DNA of 64,000 bases from Thermoproteota archaeon (lineage in GTDB: Archaea > Thermoproteota > EX4484-205 > JAAOZP01): NCBI GenBank assembly GCA_038848185.1, contig JAWCNV010000006.1, forward strand, positions 16,315-80,314. The letters run 5' to 3'. The position numbers were made by a program, and so were the translations under genes. This document shows positions 18,381 to 58,790 of the stretch, piece after piece (position 1 is the first letter of the stretch; each line of letters begins with the position of its first letter). The notes beneath the pieces are model-generated. The model searched no databases. It worked only from the letters and a program-made list of their open reading frames with translations, and was not told the origin of the DNA.

Positions 18381-18470
18381 GGGCCCGTAGCTCAGCATGG
18401 CAGAGCAGCAGCCTCTTAAACAAGAATGGAGTCAGCTGAGGGTCGAGGGTTCAAATCCCTCCGGGCCCGC
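18381..18470 (+). tRNA. tRNA-Lys (anticodon CUU) with ~14-nt intron in the anticodon loop
   Basis: Acceptor GGGCCCG/CGGGCCC. D-arm GCTC...GAGC. Anticodon stem GCAGC with loop CTCTTAA. Extra 14-15 nt before the 3' stem half. T-arm GAGGGTTCAAATCCCTC. 90 nt. No encoded CCA. Confidence 0.75.
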
Positions 18471-22850: not shown

Positions 22851-23987
22851 TTGAATAGGAAAATGATAGGTATAGTTGTAGCAACATCCATACTAGTGCT
22901 TTGCATAGTAGGTTTTGCGGTCTGGCAGAAACCCGGAGAAACAACAGATAATGTTAACCCACAGGACACTATAAACTCCAATGGGGAAATGCTTGAAAAC
23001 CATACTCTGCGACAGTTAGCAGATCAGTGTAACATAATGATCGGAACATGTGTAAGCTATAATGCTTTGAAGCGTGACAGTGTTTACAGGAATATCCTGG
23101 CTCAAGAGTTTAACATAGTTACGCCAGAAAACGAGTTGAAATTTGAACCTGTGCACCCGGCTCCTACACGCTACGTTTTTCAGCAGGCAGATGAAATCAT
23201 TTCTTTTGCAGAAGCTAACGGTATGAAAGTTAGGGGTCATACACTTGTCTGGCATAATCAGCTTCCTCAATGGATAACAAAGGGAGAATATACGAAGGAG
23301 GAGTGGGTTGAAATATTGAGGGAACACATACATACGGTTGTCGAAAGATACCGTGGAAGAATATATGCTTGGGATGTTGTGAACGAGGCTTTTAGCGATG
23401 ATGGTAAGCTTAGGGAGACTGTTTGGCTAAAAAACATCGGTCCTGAATATATCGAGCTGGCCTTCAGGTGGGCGCATGAAGCTGATCCTGATGCACTCTT
23501 ATTCTATAATGATTATGGCATAGAGGGGGTTAATGAGAAGTCTAACGCTGTCTACAACTTCATCAGGGAGCTTCTGAATAAGGGTGTTCCAATACACGGC
23601 GTAGGTCTTCAGATGCATATTGGTTTGGAGTGGTATCCTGATCCATCGAGCATTGCTGAAAACATTAGGAGGTTCAGGGAACTCGGCCTCAAGGTTGAAA
23701 TAACGGAGATGGATGTTAGGATTAAGCTTCCTGCTTCGAATGATGATCTTGCCAGGCAAGCAGAAATATACAAGAATATTTTGAAGACGTATCTAGATAG
23801 CGATAGCCCGGATGCGTTCATACTGTGGGGTTTTACAGATAAATATTCTTGGGTATCTTACTCCTTCTCCGGATACGGATCAGCCGTGATCTTCGACGAG
23901 TCCTATGAGCCTAAGCCAGCCTACTACGCCTTGAAAGAAGCCATGTGGGAGAAGATTCAATCGGGCAATACGGGTGGAACAGGATAA
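22851..23987 (+). CDS. Glycoside hydrolase family 10 endo-1,4-beta-xylanase, membrane-anchored/secreted
   Basis: 378 aa. N-terminal TM segment. 'TPENELKFE', 'GHTLVWHNQLPQW', 'WDVVNEAF' (acid/base) and 'ITEMDV' (nucleophile) are canonical GH10 blocks. Confidence 0.9.
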   Translation: MNRKMIGIVVATSILVLCIVGFAVWQKPGETTDNVNPQDTINSNGEMLENHTLRQLADQCNIMIGTCVSYNALKRDSVYRNILAQEFNIVTPENELKFEPVHPAPTRYVFQQADEIISFAEANGMKVRGHTLVWHNQLPQWITKGEYTKEEWVEILREHIHTVVERYRGRIYAWDVVNEAFSDDGKLRETVWLKNIGPEYIELAFRWAHEADPDALLFYNDYGIEGVNEKSNAVYNFIRELLNKGVPIHGVGLQMHIGLEWYPDPSSIAENIRRFRELGLKVEITEMDVRIKLPASNDDLARQAEIYKNILKTYLDSDSPDAFILWGFTDKYSWVSYSFSGYGSAVIFDESYEPKPAYYALKEAMWEKIQSGNTGGTG

Positions 23988-48733: not shown

Positions 48734-48835
48734 TGCGGGAGGTGGGATTTGAACCCACGAACCCCTTCGGGACTGGATCTTAAGTCCAGCGCCTCGAGTC
48801 CATAGTCCCGTTTGACCAGGCTTGGCTACTCCCGC
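48734..48835 (-). tRNA. tRNA-Leu (anticodon UAA) with ~15-nt intron at a non-canonical position (D-arm/anticodon-stem junction)
   Basis: Reverse complement has acceptor GCGGGAG/CTCCCGC, D-arm GCC-AAGCCTGGTCAAA, perfect anticodon hairpin CTGGA-CTTAAGA-TCCAG nested inside GGGAC...GTCCC, long variable arm CCCGAAGGGG, T-arm GTGGGTTCAAATCCCAC. 102 nt vs ~87 expected. Confidence 0.75.
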
Positions 48836-52708: not shown

Positions 52709-54610
52709 GTGACGCTTCCCGTTGTAATCATTGCTGCAGGGGTAGCCTCTAGGCTAAAACCCTACTCGGAGGAGACGCCTAAATGCCTCATGGAGCTGGA
52801 GCCAGGTGTAACAATACTGGACTTTATCCTAAGTAGGTTGGAGGACGTTAAACCTCCCCGCGTCTTTATCATTACAAGACCACAGTTTAGAAGAATACTG
52901 GAGGAGAAGTTAAGGGGGAAGGTGGATTTAGTGGAGACTGACAAGGAGGAGTTTGGAAACCTTTACAGTGTTAGCTTAGCTTTGAAAAGGTTAGGTGCAG
53001 ATAGTTTCCTCATCCTCATGTCTGACCATATTTATGAGAAGGCGGTTGTCGAAGAAGTTTTATCTTCAGGAAATAAGGCGGCGTTCACTGTTTGCCTCGA
53101 GAGAAAGCCTTCGCAGACTGAGGCGGAGGAAGGATTGAAAATCGTGTTAAAAGAGCAGGGAGTAGCCTACGCGGACAAGAAGGTTTTGCCTAGACACGGA
53201 ATAGATACGGGCGTGATACTATGCAGAGAGAAGTCTAAGAAATATATAGAGAAGACAATAGAGGAGTTTGGTCCTAATGCAACAATAGCAGACGTGTTGA
53301 AACTTGCTTCCGCAGAGAATGAAGTGGATTATGTGGATGTTACTGGAAAGCTTTGGAAAGACATAGACACGCCTGAGGATCTGGTTAAGGGTAGAGAGGT
53401 TTACTGGCAAATATTGAGGAGGGAGAACGAGACCGAAGGTGGATTAATCTCGAGATACCTTATTAAGCCTGTATCGACACGTGTTTCTATAGCGGTCTAT
53501 CGAGGCTTTGACGTAGAGCCTCTGGCAATAATGCTGGTTTCGTTTATACTTGCCTTGTCAGCAGGTTTCCTCCTAGCGAGAGGAAGCTCCCTATGGGGAG
53601 GATTGCTTGTTGGACTCGTATCTCTAATTAGTGAAGTGGGCAATGAATTGGTAAACCTTGACAGAGGAGCTTCTTGGAGACTTCACGTAAGTTCATTACT
53701 GGATCGCGTTTCAGATATTGCGATAGTAGGCGGATTTTCAATGCCCCTACTTTCAGTTGAAGACAGTAGCAACTTCCTGTTTGTTATTCTTGCAATCTCT
53801 AATATAATATTGGTGAGTTATGCGACTCAGGTTTTGAACAGTATTGGCATAAAAACAAGGGGTCTAAGAAAAATACCTGCGACCAGAGACGTGCTGTTGT
53901 TCGTAGTTTTTATTGCCTTAATAATTTCGCTTCCCCTATACGGATTATACTATTTGTCTATAGTACCTATTTTCTACCTATTGTACTCTATTATTCTGGC
54001 CTTAAGAAGCAGAAGGGAAAAAGCTAAGCCGGAGAGAAGAAAGAAACCGCCTAAGCCTGAGGTTGTGATAGAGAGGGGGGAAGTGGGTAAGAAGATTGAA
54101 AGCCTTGTTTCCAACTCGCTTAAACTGGCGTTATCACTCCTCTTCCTGCATATGGCTACACCAGTGGTTTCAGACATTACCTTGATAACTATCGATGACT
54201 TGGTTTTGAAGTCAGACCACTTGCTATCCGCCTTATTTCTAGCCATATCAATATACTTCGGGTACCGTATACTTATGTCCTTGAAATTCCTTATAGATGT
54301 CGTGACTAAACGCTTAGTAGCGGTTCTCAGAATCTCGGAGTTCACGCTCAGACACGTGTTGATTGATTCACTATACATCTTGCTGGCTTTAGTGCTTTGG
54401 ATTTATCTGCCTCCCCAGCTTAGGCTCATACCATATATTGGTGAAAACCTTGCAAGGCTAGGAGCATTAGCAATATTCGTCTTCTTCATATTAATACTCT
54501 ACGATATGGCGAAGCTCCTTTACAAGACTTTCGGAGACATCTACAGAAAGATGATAGAGAAGATTACGGAGAAGATTCATGAAAGCACGGAGTCCTCTGA
54601 ACATGCTTAA
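52709..54610 (+). CDS. Bifunctional-architecture protein: sugar-phosphate nucleotidyltransferase (IPCT-like, canonical) fused to a large membrane domain with a divergent CDP-alcohol phosphotransferase-like motif
   Basis: 633 aa. N-terminal 'VVIIAAGVASRLKPYSEETPKCLMEL' is the G-x-G-x-R-L...PK nucleotidyltransferase signature. Then about 9 TM helices. The 'NLDRGASWRLHVSSLLDRVSD' region only loosely matches D-G-x2-A-R...D-x3-D. Confidence 0.6.
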   Translation: MTLPVVIIAAGVASRLKPYSEETPKCLMELEPGVTILDFILSRLEDVKPPRVFIITRPQFRRILEEKLRGKVDLVETDKEEFGNLYSVSLALKRLGADSFLILMSDHIYEKAVVEEVLSSGNKAAFTVCLERKPSQTEAEEGLKIVLKEQGVAYADKKVLPRHGIDTGVILCREKSKKYIEKTIEEFGPNATIADVLKLASAENEVDYVDVTGKLWKDIDTPEDLVKGREVYWQILRRENETEGGLISRYLIKPVSTRVSIAVYRGFDVEPLAIMLVSFILALSAGFLLARGSSLWGGLLVGLVSLISEVGNELVNLDRGASWRLHVSSLLDRVSDIAIVGGFSMPLLSVEDSSNFLFVILAISNIILVSYATQVLNSIGIKTRGLRKIPATRDVLLFVVFIALIISLPLYGLYYLSIVPIFYLLYSIILALRSRREKAKPERRKKPPKPEVVIERGEVGKKIESLVSNSLKLALSLLFLHMATPVVSDITLITIDDLVLKSDHLLSALFLAISIYFGYRILMSLKFLIDVVTKRLVAVLRISEFTLRHVLIDSLYILLALVLWIYLPPQLRLIPYIGENLARLGALAIFVFFILILYDMAKLLYKTFGDIYRKMIEKITEKIHESTESSEHA

Positions 54611-54661
54611 ATTTTTATTCGTAGGAGGAACCAATTAATGAGGATCCTAGAGGGATAAGGG

Positions 54662-55939
54662 ATGAGAGCGATAATACTTGCTACGGAGAAAGATTTCATA
54701 TTCGGCAAGAACAGGCCGCTTGCCTTAGTTAAGGTGTGCAGTGTCTCCCTGATAGCGAGAATCTTGAATTCTGTTAGAGCTGCAGGAATTAGGGAAGCCC
54801 TTATAGTTTTAGGGTCCAAAGGAGAGGAGATACGTGACATGTTTAAAAACGGCGAGGAAATAGGTCTTAAACTACTTTATCTTCAAGCAGGAGAACGCGA
54901 GGTTCCTAAGTTGAGGGAGTTTCTGAATGATGATTTGCTGATAATAAATGGAGATGTCGTTATAGACACGGAGTTTGTAAGCGGAATCATGAAGATAGCA
55001 GGCAGTGTTGCTTGCTATCTTAACAGTGAGTCTATTGGAATTTACAGACTAGACAGGGAGTACTCAAGACTGTTGCAAGACGATGTTGCTTCGAATCTCG
55101 GTAAAATATTAGAGGAGATTGAAGTTAAGATCCTTAGGCTAGACATAACTAAGATGGAGATGGAACATGTTGAGTTAAAGCGCAGGGTTTCTCCAGTCTG
55201 CGTCAAGATAAATAGTAGGAATGCGATTGAGCTTGCTAAAAGGAAACTTGTTTTCAGAACTCAAAAGGGGCTTCACTTCACCTCCTACATAAATAAGCCC
55301 ATAGAGGACCGTGTCACCTATCACATAGCTGAAGTATCTTGGATAACTCCGAACAGGATAACGATTCTTACAAACTTGCTGGCTTTTGCTGTTGCAGTAT
55401 TATTCCTCTTAGGATACATGAAGATAGCGGTGGTTCTGGCTTACATGGTTGGAATATTAGATGGGCTTGACGGGAAACTAGCCAGGGCAAGAGGAATTTT
55501 AACAAGGCTCGGATATATTGAGCACACGTTCGACATGCTTTACGAGCAAGCATGGTATGTATGTTTCGCCTTAAGCCTATACTTGCTGGAAAACAATTAT
55601 CTGCCGTTAGTTCTGGGATTATGCATGCTTATCGCAGACAGCTTTGTGAGGCATTGCTACATGCAGTTTAAAGAGACCATGGGGAAGGCTTTAACAGCGT
55701 ACACCAGTTTCGACAGGACCTTTGCTAGAGTAGATGGTAGGAGAAATGTGTACGTCCTATATATGATACTGTTCTCATGGTTACCCTGGTTAGGGAAACC
55801 CTTGTACGCTATGTATGCAATGCTGATACATTCTTCAGTCACAGCCTTAGTATATGCGATAAGGGCTGTTCAACACATGAGTGCCGCAGATAGGGCAGAA
55901 GGCCTAAGGGGCTTTCTTAAGCTTGTGGGAAAACCGTGA
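54662..55939 (+). CDS. IPCT/DIPPS-like protein: degenerate nucleotidyltransferase-like N-domain fused to intact CDP-alcohol phosphotransferase (di-myo-inositol-phosphate-phosphate synthase-like)
   Basis: 425 aa. N-terminal 'IILATEKDFIFGKNRPL' lacks GxGxR. C-terminal 'PNRITILTNLL...VGILDGLDGKLARARGILTRLGYIEHTFDML' is a canonical CDP-OH phosphotransferase motif. Confidence 0.65.
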   Translation: MRAIILATEKDFIFGKNRPLALVKVCSVSLIARILNSVRAAGIREALIVLGSKGEEIRDMFKNGEEIGLKLLYLQAGEREVPKLREFLNDDLLIINGDVVIDTEFVSGIMKIAGSVACYLNSESIGIYRLDREYSRLLQDDVASNLGKILEEIEVKILRLDITKMEMEHVELKRRVSPVCVKINSRNAIELAKRKLVFRTQKGLHFTSYINKPIEDRVTYHIAEVSWITPNRITILTNLLAFAVAVLFLLGYMKIAVVLAYMVGILDGLDGKLARARGILTRLGYIEHTFDMLYEQAWYVCFALSLYLLENNYLPLVLGLCMLIADSFVRHCYMQFKETMGKALTAYTSFDRTFARVDGRRNVYVLYMILFSWLPWLGKPLYAMYAMLIHSSVTALVYAIRAVQHMSAADRAEGLRGFLKLVGKP

Positions 55940-55957: not shown

Positions 55958-56248
55958 TTATTCCTTAGTTTGACTGTTACCATACTTCTCCCTTAAGGCC
56001 CGTAGCATCTGTTTCAACTCTTCTCGGGAAGGGAAGCTTATAGCTCCGGCGGGACACCTGTGTTTGCATGATTCGCAGCCCACGACGCACTCATATGGTT
56101 GAGAAACCACAACCTTGTCTCCTCGCCTAGAAAACACTCCATGCATGCAGAACTCGACGCAGGATCCGCATTTGATGCATAGATCCGGATTTATCCTGGG
56201 GTACCACTCTATCTCTTCTCTCGGCGGCCAGAGGTTTGCCTTACTCAT
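55958..56248 (-). CDS. 2x[4Fe-4S] ferredoxin-type protein
   Basis: 'CIKCGSCVEFC' and 'CVVGCESCKHRCP' cluster-binding motifs. 96 aa. Confidence 0.8.
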   Translation of the reverse strand: MSKANLWPPREEIEWYPRINPDLCIKCGSCVEFCMHGVFSRRGDKVVVSQPYECVVGCESCKHRCPAGAISFPSREELKQMLRALREKYGNSQTKE

Positions 56249-56267
56249 CCTCGTAAACCTCCATTAT

Positions 56268-56654
56268 TCAACTAGCCGTTAATTTTTCAATGGTTTCAGC
56301 AACTTTCTTCATAGCTTCCGGAGTCTCCATGTTTCTAAGATCGAGTGAAAACACCTGTTTATCAAAGTCGAGGCCTTTCTCAGTGAAAACGTCCTTGAAC
56401 ATTTTCCTCTGCATTCTCGGGTCGCACCCGCCAATCACGTAAATCCCATCTTTATCCCCATCTTTCAAGAGGTCTCTTAAGAAGTTGTCTCCATCCGTGA
56501 CGCAGAGCTGCGGGTGAATAACAGCGTACTCAACATCAAGCTCGTTTCTCACGAAATTCACCAGTTTCCACAGCTCTAGTTTCGCGAACCCTGGGCATTC
56601 TCCCGTGCAGAAGCACATTATGAATCTGGGACGATTCTTAGTGTTCTTCATCAT
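56268..56654 (-). CDS. MvhD/FlpD-like hydrogenase/heterodisulfide-reductase-associated iron-sulfur subunit homolog (Cys-depleted)
   Basis: 128 aa. 'RFIMCFCTGECPG' resembles the MvhD 'GFCCNWCSY' block. 'GIYVIGGCDPRMQ' resembles 'VSGCHFGDCHY'. Similar length. Confidence 0.5.
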   Translation of the reverse strand: MMKNTKNRPRFIMCFCTGECPGFAKLELWKLVNFVRNELDVEYAVIHPQLCVTDGDNFLRDLLKDGDKDGIYVIGGCDPRMQRKMFKDVFTEKGLDFDKQVFSLDLRNMETPEAMKKVAETIEKLTAS

Positions 56655-56791
56655 GAGACTGTCGTTTTTAAACAGCGTTTTTAAACTTTTTCTTAAGGTT
56701 TATTTTCTAAATCAACTCGCTTGGTAACCGTTTCATAGCTAGTTAGAATGGCCTTTTCTAAAGAAATTCCCCTAAGTAACGTGTACGACGT

Positions 56792-57199
56792 TTATAATTT
56801 TGCTTCTTCAATTATTATTTGTGCTATTTTTCCCACGTCCGCCTCATAAATATCAAGAGTCGGTATTTTACGCAGGTATTTTGATATGTCGATCTCATAG
56901 TCGATCTTTTTCCCAGTTTTCTCTAAAACTTTTGAGGCACACCTGTTGCCGCATCCGTTTACAGCTATGTTCATTTTAGCTCTTCCAGCTATGTCTAGAT
57001 GTGGCTTCGAGCCTGCTGCTAGGGCTGTCGTGCAACACATTCTAGCCTTACCCATGTTTGTAAGCAAGACTCCCACTTCATGTCCTATTTGGCCGACGTT
57101 TGCAGCCCCGTCGCAAACCCAAACCATGTTTTCATGTTCAGCAACTTGGTGGCAGAGACTAAGAATCTTAGGTTGAGCATCTGCTTTTTTCCCCGTCAT
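56792..57199 (-). CDS. DGC-domain (putative zinc/iron-chelating) protein
   Basis: 135 aa. 'WVCDGAANVGQ' is the DGC motif. 'MCCTTA' and 'NGCGNRCASK' are conserved Cys clusters. Confidence 0.6.
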   Translation of the reverse strand: MTGKKADAQPKILSLCHQVAEHENMVWVCDGAANVGQIGHEVGVLLTNMGKARMCCTTALAAGSKPHLDIAGRAKMNIAVNGCGNRCASKVLEKTGKKIDYEIDISKYLRKIPTLDIYEADVGKIAQIIIEEAKL

Positions 57200-57202
57200 T
57201 AT

Positions 57203-58186
57203 TTATTCACCTTTTCCCTTTGAAGTGGTATTACTTTTATCTTCATCCCGAACATCTTCGGGGCGTGTGGTTCTCATATTCATACCGTTTTTATCTAAGA
57301 ATCTTTCTATTTTCTCCGTAATCTTCATGAATTCTTCCGCCGCCGGAGAATCAGTTTGGCTGATTATGAAGGGCAAGCCCTCGTCTGAGGCCTCGCATAT
57401 ACGTGGATCTAAGGGTATCTTTCCGAGGAAATCAGCGTCCAGCTCCTCCGCTATTTTTTCTCCTCCTCCCGTTTTGAAAACATCTATTCTAGTCCCGCAG
57501 TTAGGACATATTAAGCCACTCATGTTCTCCACCACGCCTATGATGGGAACGTTAAGCTCCTTGGCGAACATCACTGCCTTCTTAACCACATCCTGAGAAA
57601 CCTCTGAAGGTATTGTGACGATGACTACGCCATCCATCTCTGGCAGAAGCTGCATAACGCTCAGAGCCTCGTCCCCAGTGCCCGGAGGCAGGTCTATGAG
57701 AAGAAGGTTAAGCTCACCCCAAGTGATATCGGATAAGAATTGTCTGATCGCCGACATTTTAAGGGGGCCACGCCATATGACCGGTGTCTCTTGGCTCGGC
57801 AGCAGGAAATCGATTGAAACAACTTTAATCCCAAGCGGACCCTCCGCAGGGAAGGCCCCTAATGGGCCTGCTCTCAGAATCTCACCCTTCATACCCAGCA
57901 TCCTCGGGACGCATGGGCCATGGATATCAGCGTCCAGAATACCTATCCTACCAAGATTACTCTTCTTAGCGAATGCTATGGCTAGGTTTATCGTCACCAT
58001 CGTCTTCCCAACTCCCCCCTTGCCGCTGATCACTGCGACCTTGTGTTTTACCTTGCTCATCTTTTCCCTAAGCTTCCTCTCCTGTTCCTCTAACTCTCCT
58101 CTTTTGAATCCAGCATGTTGTTCACCTTCAACAAGGGTATCCGTTAGATCGGTTTTCCCCATGACCATAGTTTGAATCGTAAACAA
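57203..58186 (-). CDS. Mrp/NBP35/ApbC-family iron-sulfur cluster carrier ATPase
   Basis: 'VISGKGGVGKT' deviant Walker A. 'CPNCG' CxxC cluster-bridging motif. Acidic/Lys-rich C-terminal tail. The start may be an internal Met. Confidence 0.85.
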   Translation of the reverse strand: MFTIQTMVMGKTDLTDTLVEGEQHAGFKRGELEEQERKLREKMSKVKHKVAVISGKGGVGKTMVTINLAIAFAKKSNLGRIGILDADIHGPCVPRMLGMKGEILRAGPLGAFPAEGPLGIKVVSIDFLLPSQETPVIWRGPLKMSAIRQFLSDITWGELNLLLIDLPPGTGDEALSVMQLLPEMDGVVIVTIPSEVSQDVVKKAVMFAKELNVPIIGVVENMSGLICPNCGTRIDVFKTGGGEKIAEELDADFLGKIPLDPRICEASDEGLPFIISQTDSPAAEEFMKITEKIERFLDKNGMNMRTTRPEDVRDEDKSNTTSKGKGE

Positions 58187-58220
58187 TATTTATCTCTTCC
58201 GTTTAGAATAGAAACTAATT

Positions 58221-58790
58221 ATGGATGAAGTAGATAGGAAGCTGATATCTCAGCTGCAGACTGATGGCCGCATGACCCTCGAGAAACTTGGGAGGATAAC
58301 GGGTTACACGAGTATGGGGGTTAAGAAAAGGCTTGGAAAGCTAGTTGAAAACAAGGCGGTCAAAGTGGCGGCTCAGCTGAACCTGAAGTATTTCGACATG
58401 CGTTCAGCCATTGTTCTGATTGAAACAGACGGGTTTGAAACCATGGAGAGGCTTGTTAAACGCTTTGAAGAATGTCCTCGGATAGTCTATATTTTCACGA
58501 TGATCGGCGGGTATAACATGATGGCACTGATAGTGGCTGAAAACCACGAGACTCTGGAAAGCATATCTATGGGGAAATGCTCGTTGAGAAGCGGGAGAGG
58601 AATACGTAGATCAGAGTTCTACCAGATAAAGGATATCAGCTATTCCCCGCTTATGCCTGTTAGAATAGAGTTGGCACATAGAAGGTTAAAAGAAGCACCA
58701 TGTGGCACGAACTGTGATTCCTGCACCCGGTATAAGTCTGAGGAATGTGTAGGATGCCCGGCAACCGAGTGTTACCGAGGTAGTCTCTAG
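58221..58790 (+). CDS. Lrp/AsnC-family transcriptional regulator with C-terminal cysteine-rich extension
   Basis: HTH 'DRKLISQLQTDGRMTLEKLGRITGYTSMGVKKRLGKL'. RAM domain. Tail 'CGTNCDSCTRYKSEECVGCPATECY' has 8 Cys in 25 aa. Confidence 0.75.
   Translation: MDEVDRKLISQLQTDGRMTLEKLGRITGYTSMGVKKRLGKLVENKAVKVAAQLNLKYFDMRSAIVLIETDGFETMERLVKRFEECPRIVYIFTMIGGYNMMALIVAENHETLESISMGKCSLRSGRGIRRSEFYQIKDISYSPLMPVRIELAHRRLKEAPCGTNCDSCTRYKSEECVGCPATECYRGSL

Follow-up and report, generated by a model that had tools for sequence, protein, structure and literature searches.

A 64,000-nucleotide stretch of DNA from a Thermoproteota archaeon (assembly GCA_038848185.1, contig JAWCNV010000006.1, positions 16,315 to 80,314), called the window here, carries a gene for a transcriptional regulator of the Lrp/AsnC family that is read divergently from a gene for Mrp/NBP35, an iron–sulfur (Fe-S) cluster carrier ATPase. 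Behind Mrp on the minus strand follow genes for a DGC-domain protein, a 128-residue protein and a ferredoxin, and the five open reading frames (ORFs) together span window positions 55958–58790. An earlier note, written from the sequence alone, had singled out this locus, and all five ORFs are present at the coordinates that it gave. It proposed that a cysteine-rich tail on the regulator ligates an Fe-S cluster or metal and thereby places the locus under the control of Fe-S or redox status. Comparison with relatives supports one half of that proposal well, namely that a regulator with a cysteine (Cys) module controls an Fe-S locus: the gene is linked to Mrp, and the two share a conserved operator. 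The other half, ligation of an Fe-S cluster, is a step that we infer.

An Lrp/AsnC regulator with an added cysteine module

The regulator is a genuine member of its family. Its helix-turn-helix (HTH) region matches PF13404 with an E value of 1.9e-9 (37.6 bits against a cut-off of 27), and its regulation-of-amino-acid-metabolism (RAM) domain matches PF01037 (AsnC_trans_reg) with an E value of 5.7e-5, at 23.4 bits slightly under the 25-bit cut-off. An AlphaFold2 (AF2) model from 120 sequences has a mean predicted local distance difference test score (pLDDT) of 93.2, with values of 89–95 in the blocks of the tail. In a Foldseek search, this model aligned over 143–147 columns, at a target-normalised template-modelling (TM) score of ∼0.8, to the structures of PH0061, PH0140, FL11/PH1519 with DNA, LrpA, and Escherichia coli AsnC and Lrp. 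Because these columns superpose on full-length Lrp/AsnC structures, the model indicates that residues 1–145 are a complete HTH and RAM fold and that the last 44 residues are an add-on. Modelled alone, the tail forms a compact mini-domain (pLDDT 87.4).

The protein ends in ...PCGTNCDSCTRYKSEECVGCPATECYRGSL. This end was first described as a tail of eight Cys. It is indeed rich in Cys, but eight is the count for the whole protein; the tail holds six, of which five are invariant. Among 5.8 billion proteins, 826 relatives were identified; nearly all of the 120 best are about 189 residues long, and their alignments extend over the full query. With each species represented by one genome, 230 species encoded a relative, and 80 loci were kept. 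With the window, these provide 81 regulators from different species that are 53–83% identical. Almost all of the 80 loci come from Bathyarchaeia, the six closest being metagenome-assembled genomes (MAGs) of hot-spring Thermoproteota, and the family as a whole is confined to anaerobic lineages, the Bathyarchaeia and one Heimdallarchaeaceae MAG. Seven positions, C85, C120, C161, C165, C168, C176 and C179, are Cys in every one of the 81 regulators, whereas the position of C184 is Cys in two. The pattern of conservation indicates that the seven are under selection. In the tail they follow the motif P-C-x3-C-x2-C-x7-C-x-G-C-P...Y-R-G. The recognition-helix segment SMGVKKR is also almost invariant across the family, which fits the conserved operator described below.

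The earlier note had asked whether orthologs share the tail or whether it is a lineage-specific read-through. Read-through is ruled out, since the tail is present in 81/81 orthologs whatever gene lies downstream, and it also occurs in far more divergent Lrp-like proteins. A profile of residues 118–189 was compared with 1.84 billion representative sequences and returned 119 clusters, mostly proteins of 185–210 residues with the same architecture. In a few clusters, the unit of HTH, RAM domain and Cys tail is fused to an N-terminal KaiC/RecA-like domain. Proteins P0128 and P0136 (∼455 residues) and P0211 (410 residues) are such fusions or tandem units, and one tandem protein comprises two complete units, each with its own Cys tail. 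Among 27 proteins that are 15–42% identical to the window regulator, all of which match PF13404, the sole invariant columns are C85, P86, C165, C168, C176, C179 and Y185, while C161, P160, G178 and P180 are kept in more than 90%. C120 is limited to the narrower family of close relatives. Classical Lrp proteins have Y or F at the position of C85. Thus, C85 co-occurs with the tail, and the two probably work together.

The tail matches no family in Pfam or NCBIfam. Specifically, TRASH, YHS and HMA have no match on it, and neither the whole protein nor 58 diverse tails match TRASH or YHS even at E ≤ 1–10. Compared with the Protein Data Bank (PDB), the sequence of the C-terminal module found no match (best E 0.28), and NCBIfam returned for the 58 tails only marginal radical-SAM-type matches that reflect CX3CX2C. 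DUF3795 (PF12675) was considered and rejected, as its match to the window tail is sub-threshold (15.1 bits against a cut-off of 22.6; E 0.03) and 7 of the 58 diverse tails match it weakly, with E values of at least 0.014 and in every case below the cut-off. The likeness is faint and local, covering the first half of the motif (CG..C..C..Y) and ∼16 of 83 model positions. DUF3795 is a Cys-rich family without known function, and the likeness adds nothing mechanistic.

A two-box operator and its predicted targets

Directly upstream of the regulator gene, 76 of the 80 loci carry two 15-bp palindromes of the form GTTTA-N5-TAAAC, arranged in the module AGTTTAAtanaTAAACnATATTAATAnnTTaTGTTTAnAAAaTAAAC. 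The boxes start 31 bp apart in 63 loci, from which the consensus was built, and 32 bp apart in 11. The pair brackets an AT-rich, TATA-like element, and the second box ends 4–18 nt before the start codon across loci. In the window, the shorter pattern GTTT-N7-AAAC occurs three times, and two of these occurrences are the operator boxes. The third, a single box at 23421–23435 (GTTTGGCTAAAAAAC), was taken as chance, the expected count in the window being 1.5.

The arrangement also bears on where transcription and translation begin. From the centre of the TATA-like element, it is 27 nt to an ATG of Mrp (58162) and 32 nt to that of the regulator (58221). Upstream of window ORFs, 8-mers made of A and T only peak 26–40 nt before the ATG, so that the norm in this region is a transcript with a short leader or none. 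From these distances, one TATA element appears to serve both genes, each predicted transcription start being covered by a box. The longest Mrp ORF begins at a TTG (58186), a start that would place box 1 and the TATA-like element inside the coding region. For this reason, we judge the ATG at 58162 (alternatively 58168) to be the most likely start; the protein then begins MGKTD..., resembling MGGK... of its closest relatives. The 34-bp intergenic region at 58187–58220 that had been suggested for footprinting is an artefact of the TTG start, and the revised starts leave 52–58 bp.

Mrp is the regulator's constant partner in most relatives. Among the 76 loci with enough upstream DNA, it is the divergent adjacent neighbour in 49 and lies within 7 kb upstream in six more, an outcome that favours the earlier proposal over a regulator found beside unrelated genes. 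Five of the six displaced Mrp genes have their own full two-box and TATA module, 18–26 nt upstream, besides the copy at the regulator. This is the strongest evidence that the module controls Mrp, and not the regulator alone. We regard control of Mrp by the regulator through the two-box operator as very probable.

Further operator copies extend the predicted regulon, lying upstream of NifX-like, OsmC-like and carbon monoxide dehydrogenase (CODH) alpha genes. In most Bathyarchaeia, genes for further proteins lie downstream of Mrp in its operon: two Nitro_FeMo-Co proteins (the NifX/orange-protein family), a NifU_N or DUF1847 protein, and a pair of MinD-type ATPases that have a 2x[4Fe-4S] insert. 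The NifX-like proteins match positions 262–365 of the MrpORP model, its C-terminal domain, and Mrp matches its N-terminal 255 positions. By this alignment, Mrp and the NifX-like protein read as a split MrpORP and the cluster as one of orange protein (ORP) type. It is in such an ORP-type cluster that the regulator lies in most Bathyarchaeia. Most Bathyarchaeia Mrp proteins (e.g., L025 5956–6915) also bear an N-terminal Cys-rich extension (e.g., ECDGKCDSCSTSDGC) that is absent from the window Mrp. In 45 loci, the next gene on the regulator's strand encodes an MBL-fold protein.

A paralogous clade B, comprising 19 loci, has a different neighbourhood. Here the regulator faces NifX-like, OsmC and flavodoxin genes instead, and the operator is present at those for the OsmC-type peroxidase and for flavodoxin. 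Often the regulator gene appears to share an operon with one for a CopA-type Cu(I) ATPase, which matches TIGR01511 at 627 bits and has in most cases two HMA motifs and a CPC. CopA follows the regulator at −4 to 14 bp (L037, L038, L041, L066, L074), or the order is regulator, MBL, P-type ATPase (L046, L056, L064, L020). CODH alpha and epsilon genes (Prismane/CODH, CO_dh) can have the operator or the regulator directly upstream (L046 4893–4938, L045 3657), and in L056 cdhA is directly divergent from the regulator. The regulon may thus reach a Wood-Ljungdahl enzyme, CO dehydrogenase. In L046 (5085–6341), and also in L016 and L070, a Nitro_FeMo-Co domain forms the C-terminal part of a cation-efflux (CDF) transporter, an unusual joining of a metal exporter and a cluster-binding domain.

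The distant tail-bearing regulators adjoin other genes, those for DsrE/TusA, TauE, NrdD and TehA-like transporters (L083/L084 5511–7291, L087 1361–5624, L088 597–2132, L085 3739–5378). One order is DsrE, regulator, TusA, DsrE, with the regulator and TusA overlapping by 4 nt. Other regulators stand beside NrdD and thymidylate synthase, beside a TauE sulfite exporter, or after SLAC1/TehA-type transporter genes.

The window's own clade appears from its gene content to be a reduced version of the Bathyarchaeia locus. Of the ORP-type set it has only Mrp, and the 64-kb window holds no NifX-like, NifU, MBL, MinD-4Fe4S or CopA gene. The genes for DGC, the 128-residue protein and ferredoxin stand behind Mrp in the window, L001 and L003–L006 and in no other locus. 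They were rejected as conserved partners of the regulator, since of the four minus-strand genes only Mrp is kept outside this clade. The coordinates of all features are collected in Table 1.

Table 1. Genes and sequence elements at the regulator locus (window positions)
Feature	Position	Strand	Basis or remark
Regulator gene	58221..58790	+	189 aa; ORF, Pfam HTH_AsnC-type and AsnC_trans_reg, AF2, Foldseek
Winged HTH	residues 1-50 (58221-58370)	+	part of regulator
RAM domain (beta-alpha-beta-beta-alpha-beta)	residues 61-136 (58401-58628)	+	part of regulator
C85, RAM-domain Cys	58473-58475	+	invariant in 81/81
C-terminal extension, 44 residues	residues 146-189 (58656-58787)	+	part of regulator
Cys knot of tail	58701..58757	+	C161-x3-C165-x2-C168-x7-C176-x2-C179, P160/P180 flanking, then invariant Y185
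Operator box 2, GTTTAGAATAGAAAC	58201..58215	.	starts 31 bp after box 1; ends 5 nt before regulator ATG
Shared TATA-like element, AATATTTAT (family consensus ATATTAATA)	58185..58193	.	putative promoter element
Operator box 1, GTTTGAATCGTAAAC (GTTTA-N5-TAAAC)	58170..58184	.	abuts TATA-like element, covers predicted Mrp transcription start
Mrp/NBP35 Fe-S cluster carrier ATPase	57203..58162 (revised start)	-	PF10609 E 1.3e-92
DGC-domain protein	56792..57199	-	PF08859 E 5.4e-21
Internal promoter-like block	56677..56712	-	box ATTTAGAAAATAAAC (56712-56698), 8 nt, AAAG-TTTAAAAAC (BRE/TATA-like, 56689-56677; BRE, B recognition element)
HdrA-N-terminal-like protein, 128 aa	56268..56654	-	PDB 7bkb_A, 9sfi_A; NCBIfam
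2x[4Fe-4S]-type ferredoxin	55958..56248	-	Fer4, Fer4_7 and related families

The identities first given to Mrp/NBP35, DGC and ferredoxin hold. The PF10609 match of Mrp, to a NUBPL/ParA P-loop domain, spans 245 of 246 model positions, and the protein carries the deviant Walker A motif GKGGVGKT and the C-terminal CPNC motif by which Mrp/NBP35/ApbC proteins are recognised. It was also weighed as an MrpORP protein and rejected. The NCBIfam model (NF041136), which joins an Mrp domain to a C-terminal Nitro_FeMo-Co-type domain, scored 331 bits against an equivalog cut-off of 450 and matched at positions 1–255 of 365 only, with its C-terminal part unmatched.

The minus-strand genes had been read as one four-gene operon. 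The genes are as described, but a single unit is improbable. DGC begins 3 nt downstream of Mrp and, given this spacing, is probably co-transcribed with it, and the ferredoxin gene begins 19 nt downstream of that for the 128-residue protein. The 137-bp gap between DGC and the 128-residue protein holds a block, (G/A)TTTAGAAAATAAAC, 8 nt and AAAG-TTTAAAAAC, that is the sole well-conserved one in the gap in 6/6 clade members. The distance from its TATA-like centre to the ATG at 56654 is ∼27 nt. Because the gap contains a conserved operator box and a BRE/TATA-like block, the four genes probably form two transcription units, Mrp with DGC and the 128-residue protein with ferredoxin, each with an operator.

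The 128-residue protein had been called a Cys-depleted MvhD-like protein with a scaffold or adaptor role, a view that finds no support. At E ≤ 10 it has no Pfam match, FlpD/MvhD (PF02662) included, and no MvhD chain is among its PDB sequence matches. Its alignments are with the N-terminal domain of HdrA, weak but consistent in the PDB (7bkb_A, E 1.6e-3; 9sfi_A, E 2.4e-3) and likewise in NCBIfam (HdrA N-terminus, E 2.5e-4), and all four aligned Cys are kept (C14, C16, C51 and C77). In sequence, the protein weakly resembles the N-terminal [4Fe-4S] domain of HdrA.

Two observations lie outside the regulator locus proper. Upstream of the ferredoxin gene, at 52709–55939 (+), two large tandem ORFs of 633 and 425 residues are syntenic in L003–L005 at 68–73% identity and absent from the L001 flank. 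In addition, Rfam calls tRNAs at 18381–18469 (+; 54.6 bits) and 48734–48835 (−; 55 bits), neither of which is among the ARAGORN predictions. Judged by their lengths of 89 and 102 nt, these are probably intron-containing archaeal tRNAs.

What the cysteine module may sense

We see about an even chance that the regulator is an autoregulated Lrp/AsnC-type factor whose Cys module holds an Fe-S cluster and which controls metal-cluster genes. Under this model, dimers of the regulator would bind the two 15-bp palindromes cooperatively and, because 31 bp amounts to three helical turns, on the same face of the DNA. The single TATA-like element would drive the regulator gene and Mrp-DGC in opposite directions, yielding leaderless or short-leader mRNAs. 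Since each box covers a predicted transcription start, the DNA-bound form would repress both divergent promoters. The third, single box upstream of the BRE/TATA-like block would add the unit of the HdrA-N-like protein and ferredoxin to the regulon. The six-Cys module, consisting of the five invariant tail Cys and C85 and joined in the close family by C120, would replace or supplement the usual effector function. It most likely carries an Fe-S cluster, whose loss, oxidation or non-insertion would alter oligomerization or DNA binding. Expression of the Fe-S carrier, and elsewhere in Bathyarchaeia of the whole ORP-type operon, would in this way be coupled to cluster supply or redox state. The evidence for an Fe-S cluster over other ligands is circumstantial and consists of the number and spacing of the Cys with flanking Pro and Gly, the recruited C85, the anaerobic lineages, and a regulon of Fe-S and metal-cluster genes. 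Two precedents, OrpR with its [4Fe-4S] cluster and CopR with its Cys sensor on an Lrp scaffold, lend the design support.

Several points weigh against this model. Another factor could bind the operator instead of the regulator, and the sign of regulation is read solely from the positions of the boxes. The window's own clade is entirely without ORP partners. Moreover, the DsrE/TusA, TauE, NrdD and TehA-like neighbours of distant tail-bearing regulators argue for a module that senses redox, sulfur or metals in general and is not dedicated to Fe-S biogenesis. Two further points, the spacing of the four last Cys and the operons of clade B, favour particular alternatives and are taken up with them.

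One alternative is a direct sensor of metal ions, in which the ligand of the Cys module is Cu(I) or some other thiophilic metal. Metal binding would switch the Lrp oligomer and so turn on both the exporter CopA, in clade B, and the proteins that replace damaged Fe-S clusters (Mrp, NifU and NifX-like proteins). The operons of clade B, in which CopA directly follows the regulator or comes after MBL, favour direct metal sensing there, as copR is likewise placed with copA. The orange protein, for its part, binds a Mo/Cu cluster. The CopR of Pyrococcus furiosus, which belongs to the Lrp family and has a Cys (TRASH) sensor at its C-terminus, is encoded divergently from copA, and copper shock in this species induces Fe-S assembly and antioxidant genes (PMC7830388). 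Because copper attacks Fe-S clusters and induces assembly genes in Pyrococcus, the regulons of a cluster-damage sensor and a copper sensor would overlap. However, the tail shows none of the TRASH, YHS or HMA signatures, and the majority clade A, to which the window belongs, has no copA nearby. The six to seven invariant Cys also exceed the usual need of a Cu(I) sensor, and the NrdD, DsrE/TusA and TauE genes beside distant members are not metal exporters. On balance, we consider this alternative unlikely.

The same Cys could instead serve structure or simple thiol chemistry. C165-x2-C168...C176-x2-C179 also fits a Zn(Cys)4 knuckle, CxxC-x7-CxxC being a common spacing for one. In that event, zinc would stabilise the fold or oligomer, a small molecule would act as effector in the RAM domain, and Mrp would be controlled without Fe-S or redox sensing. 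The complete RAM domain and the compact mini-domain predicted for the tail alone are consistent with this, as are weak, chance-level matches to zinc-finger families. We nevertheless hold it to be quite improbable, given that C161 and C85 are conserved with the tail across 15–42% identity, beyond what Zn(Cys)4 needs. Furthermore, C85 replaces an aromatic residue of the classical RAM domain, which suggests that the module reaches into the effector domain, and the genomic contexts are consistently related to redox, sulfur or metal clusters. A metal-free thiol switch, whose reversible disulfides or polysulfide bridges answer oxidants or reactive sulfur species, would suit the DsrE-regulator-TusA-DsrE and TauE contexts of distant members and the operators at the OsmC-type peroxidase and flavodoxin genes. 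Thiol-based regulators do exist in archaea. But the regular C-x3-C-x2-C...C-x2-C-P, flanked by Pro and Gly, is the kind of spacing typically seen where a metal or cluster is ligated, not where one or two Cys are redox-active, and six or seven invariant Cys are more than known thiol switches use. We give such a switch very little probability.

Significance and comparison with known systems

Very little is known about the regulation of Fe-S and metal-cluster assembly in archaea. In the literature searched, on archaea and Bathyarchaeota, there was no account of an Lrp/AsnC regulator that carries an Fe-S cluster or the Cys module seen here, nor of a regulator of archaeal ORP-type clusters. Somewhat short of an even chance, in our estimate, is the fuller proposition that the regulator is the first protein of the Lrp/AsnC family to sense an Fe-S cluster and also the first candidate for such a sensor among archaeal transcription factors. 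It would then combine a portable six-Cys module with an ORP-type regulon, predicted to include Mrp, NifX-like, NifU, MinD-4Fe4S, CODH, OsmC, flavodoxin and CopA, as a convergent counterpart of OrpR and IscR. The locus offers a complete, testable system from the uncultured, globally abundant Bathyarchaeia, with a small regulator that can likely be expressed recombinantly, a 46-bp operator/promoter module, and a predicted metal-cluster regulon that includes CO dehydrogenase. More broadly, the Cys module, for which neither Pfam nor NCBIfam has a name and which has no structural match, turns up again on divergent Lrp-type regulators whose neighbours are anaerobic, sulfur and metal genes. To identify the cofactor would be to annotate an entire class of sensors in archaea.

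In its logic, the proposal parallels bacterial IscR, SufR and RirA, where, as proposed here, cluster occupancy feeds back on the genes for carriers or scaffolds and on the regulator's own gene. Those proteins have other folds (Rrf2, ArsR/DeoR-like) and no sequence relationship to the window regulator. OrpR controls bacterial orp operons by [4Fe-4S] redox sensing and is found only in delta-Proteobacteria, while ORP itself may be of archaeal origin (PMC8359166). In Desulfovibrio vulgaris, this sigma54 enhancer-binding protein with a [4Fe-4S] PAS domain governs divergent operons with Mrp-ORP, orange-protein (Nitro_FeMo-Co) and MinD-4Fe4S genes. There, as in most Bathyarchaeia, the regulator gene lies inside the cluster, and sensing through Cys ligands is what we propose for the window regulator. 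The resemblance is one of analogy, not homology. The families are unrelated, and the window regulator could not be classed as OrpR-type, as in its 189 residues only HTH_AsnC and RAM domains were found. It is without AAA+, PAS and sigma54 parts, and archaea lack sigma54. OrpR also activates from upstream sites, whereas the boxes here overlap the core promoter.

Within the Lrp/AsnC family, the classical archaeal members, or feast/famine regulatory proteins (FFRPs; FL11/PH1519, LrpA and PH0140), share the same fold over ∼145 residues, with TM ∼0.8. The 15-bp palindromic operator is likewise of the usual Lrp type, and LrpA autoregulates through sites that overlap its promoter. By contrast, classical FFRPs end at the RAM domain, have Y or F in place of C85, and respond to amino acids.

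The archaeal CopR/CopT regulators (PF0739 in P. furiosus) come nearest in architecture, for they too place a C-terminal Cys-rich sensor on an Lrp/AsnC scaffold (PMC7830388). Both systems have a regulator divergent from its main target, several sites around the promoter, and a link to Fe-S damage, and clade B even lies near copA. The sensors themselves differ, TRASH (C-x19-22-C-x3-C) in CopR and C-x3-C-x2-C-x7-C-x2-C with a RAM-domain Cys here, as do the main targets, copA for CopR and Mrp/ORP-type genes for the family described here. With no TRASH match on the regulator and no CopA in the window, the window regulator was not assigned to CopR/CopT. CopR thus already exemplifies an Lrp-type regulator that bears a Cys sensor at its C-terminus, and what our work adds is a new Cys module, a new operator and a new regulon.

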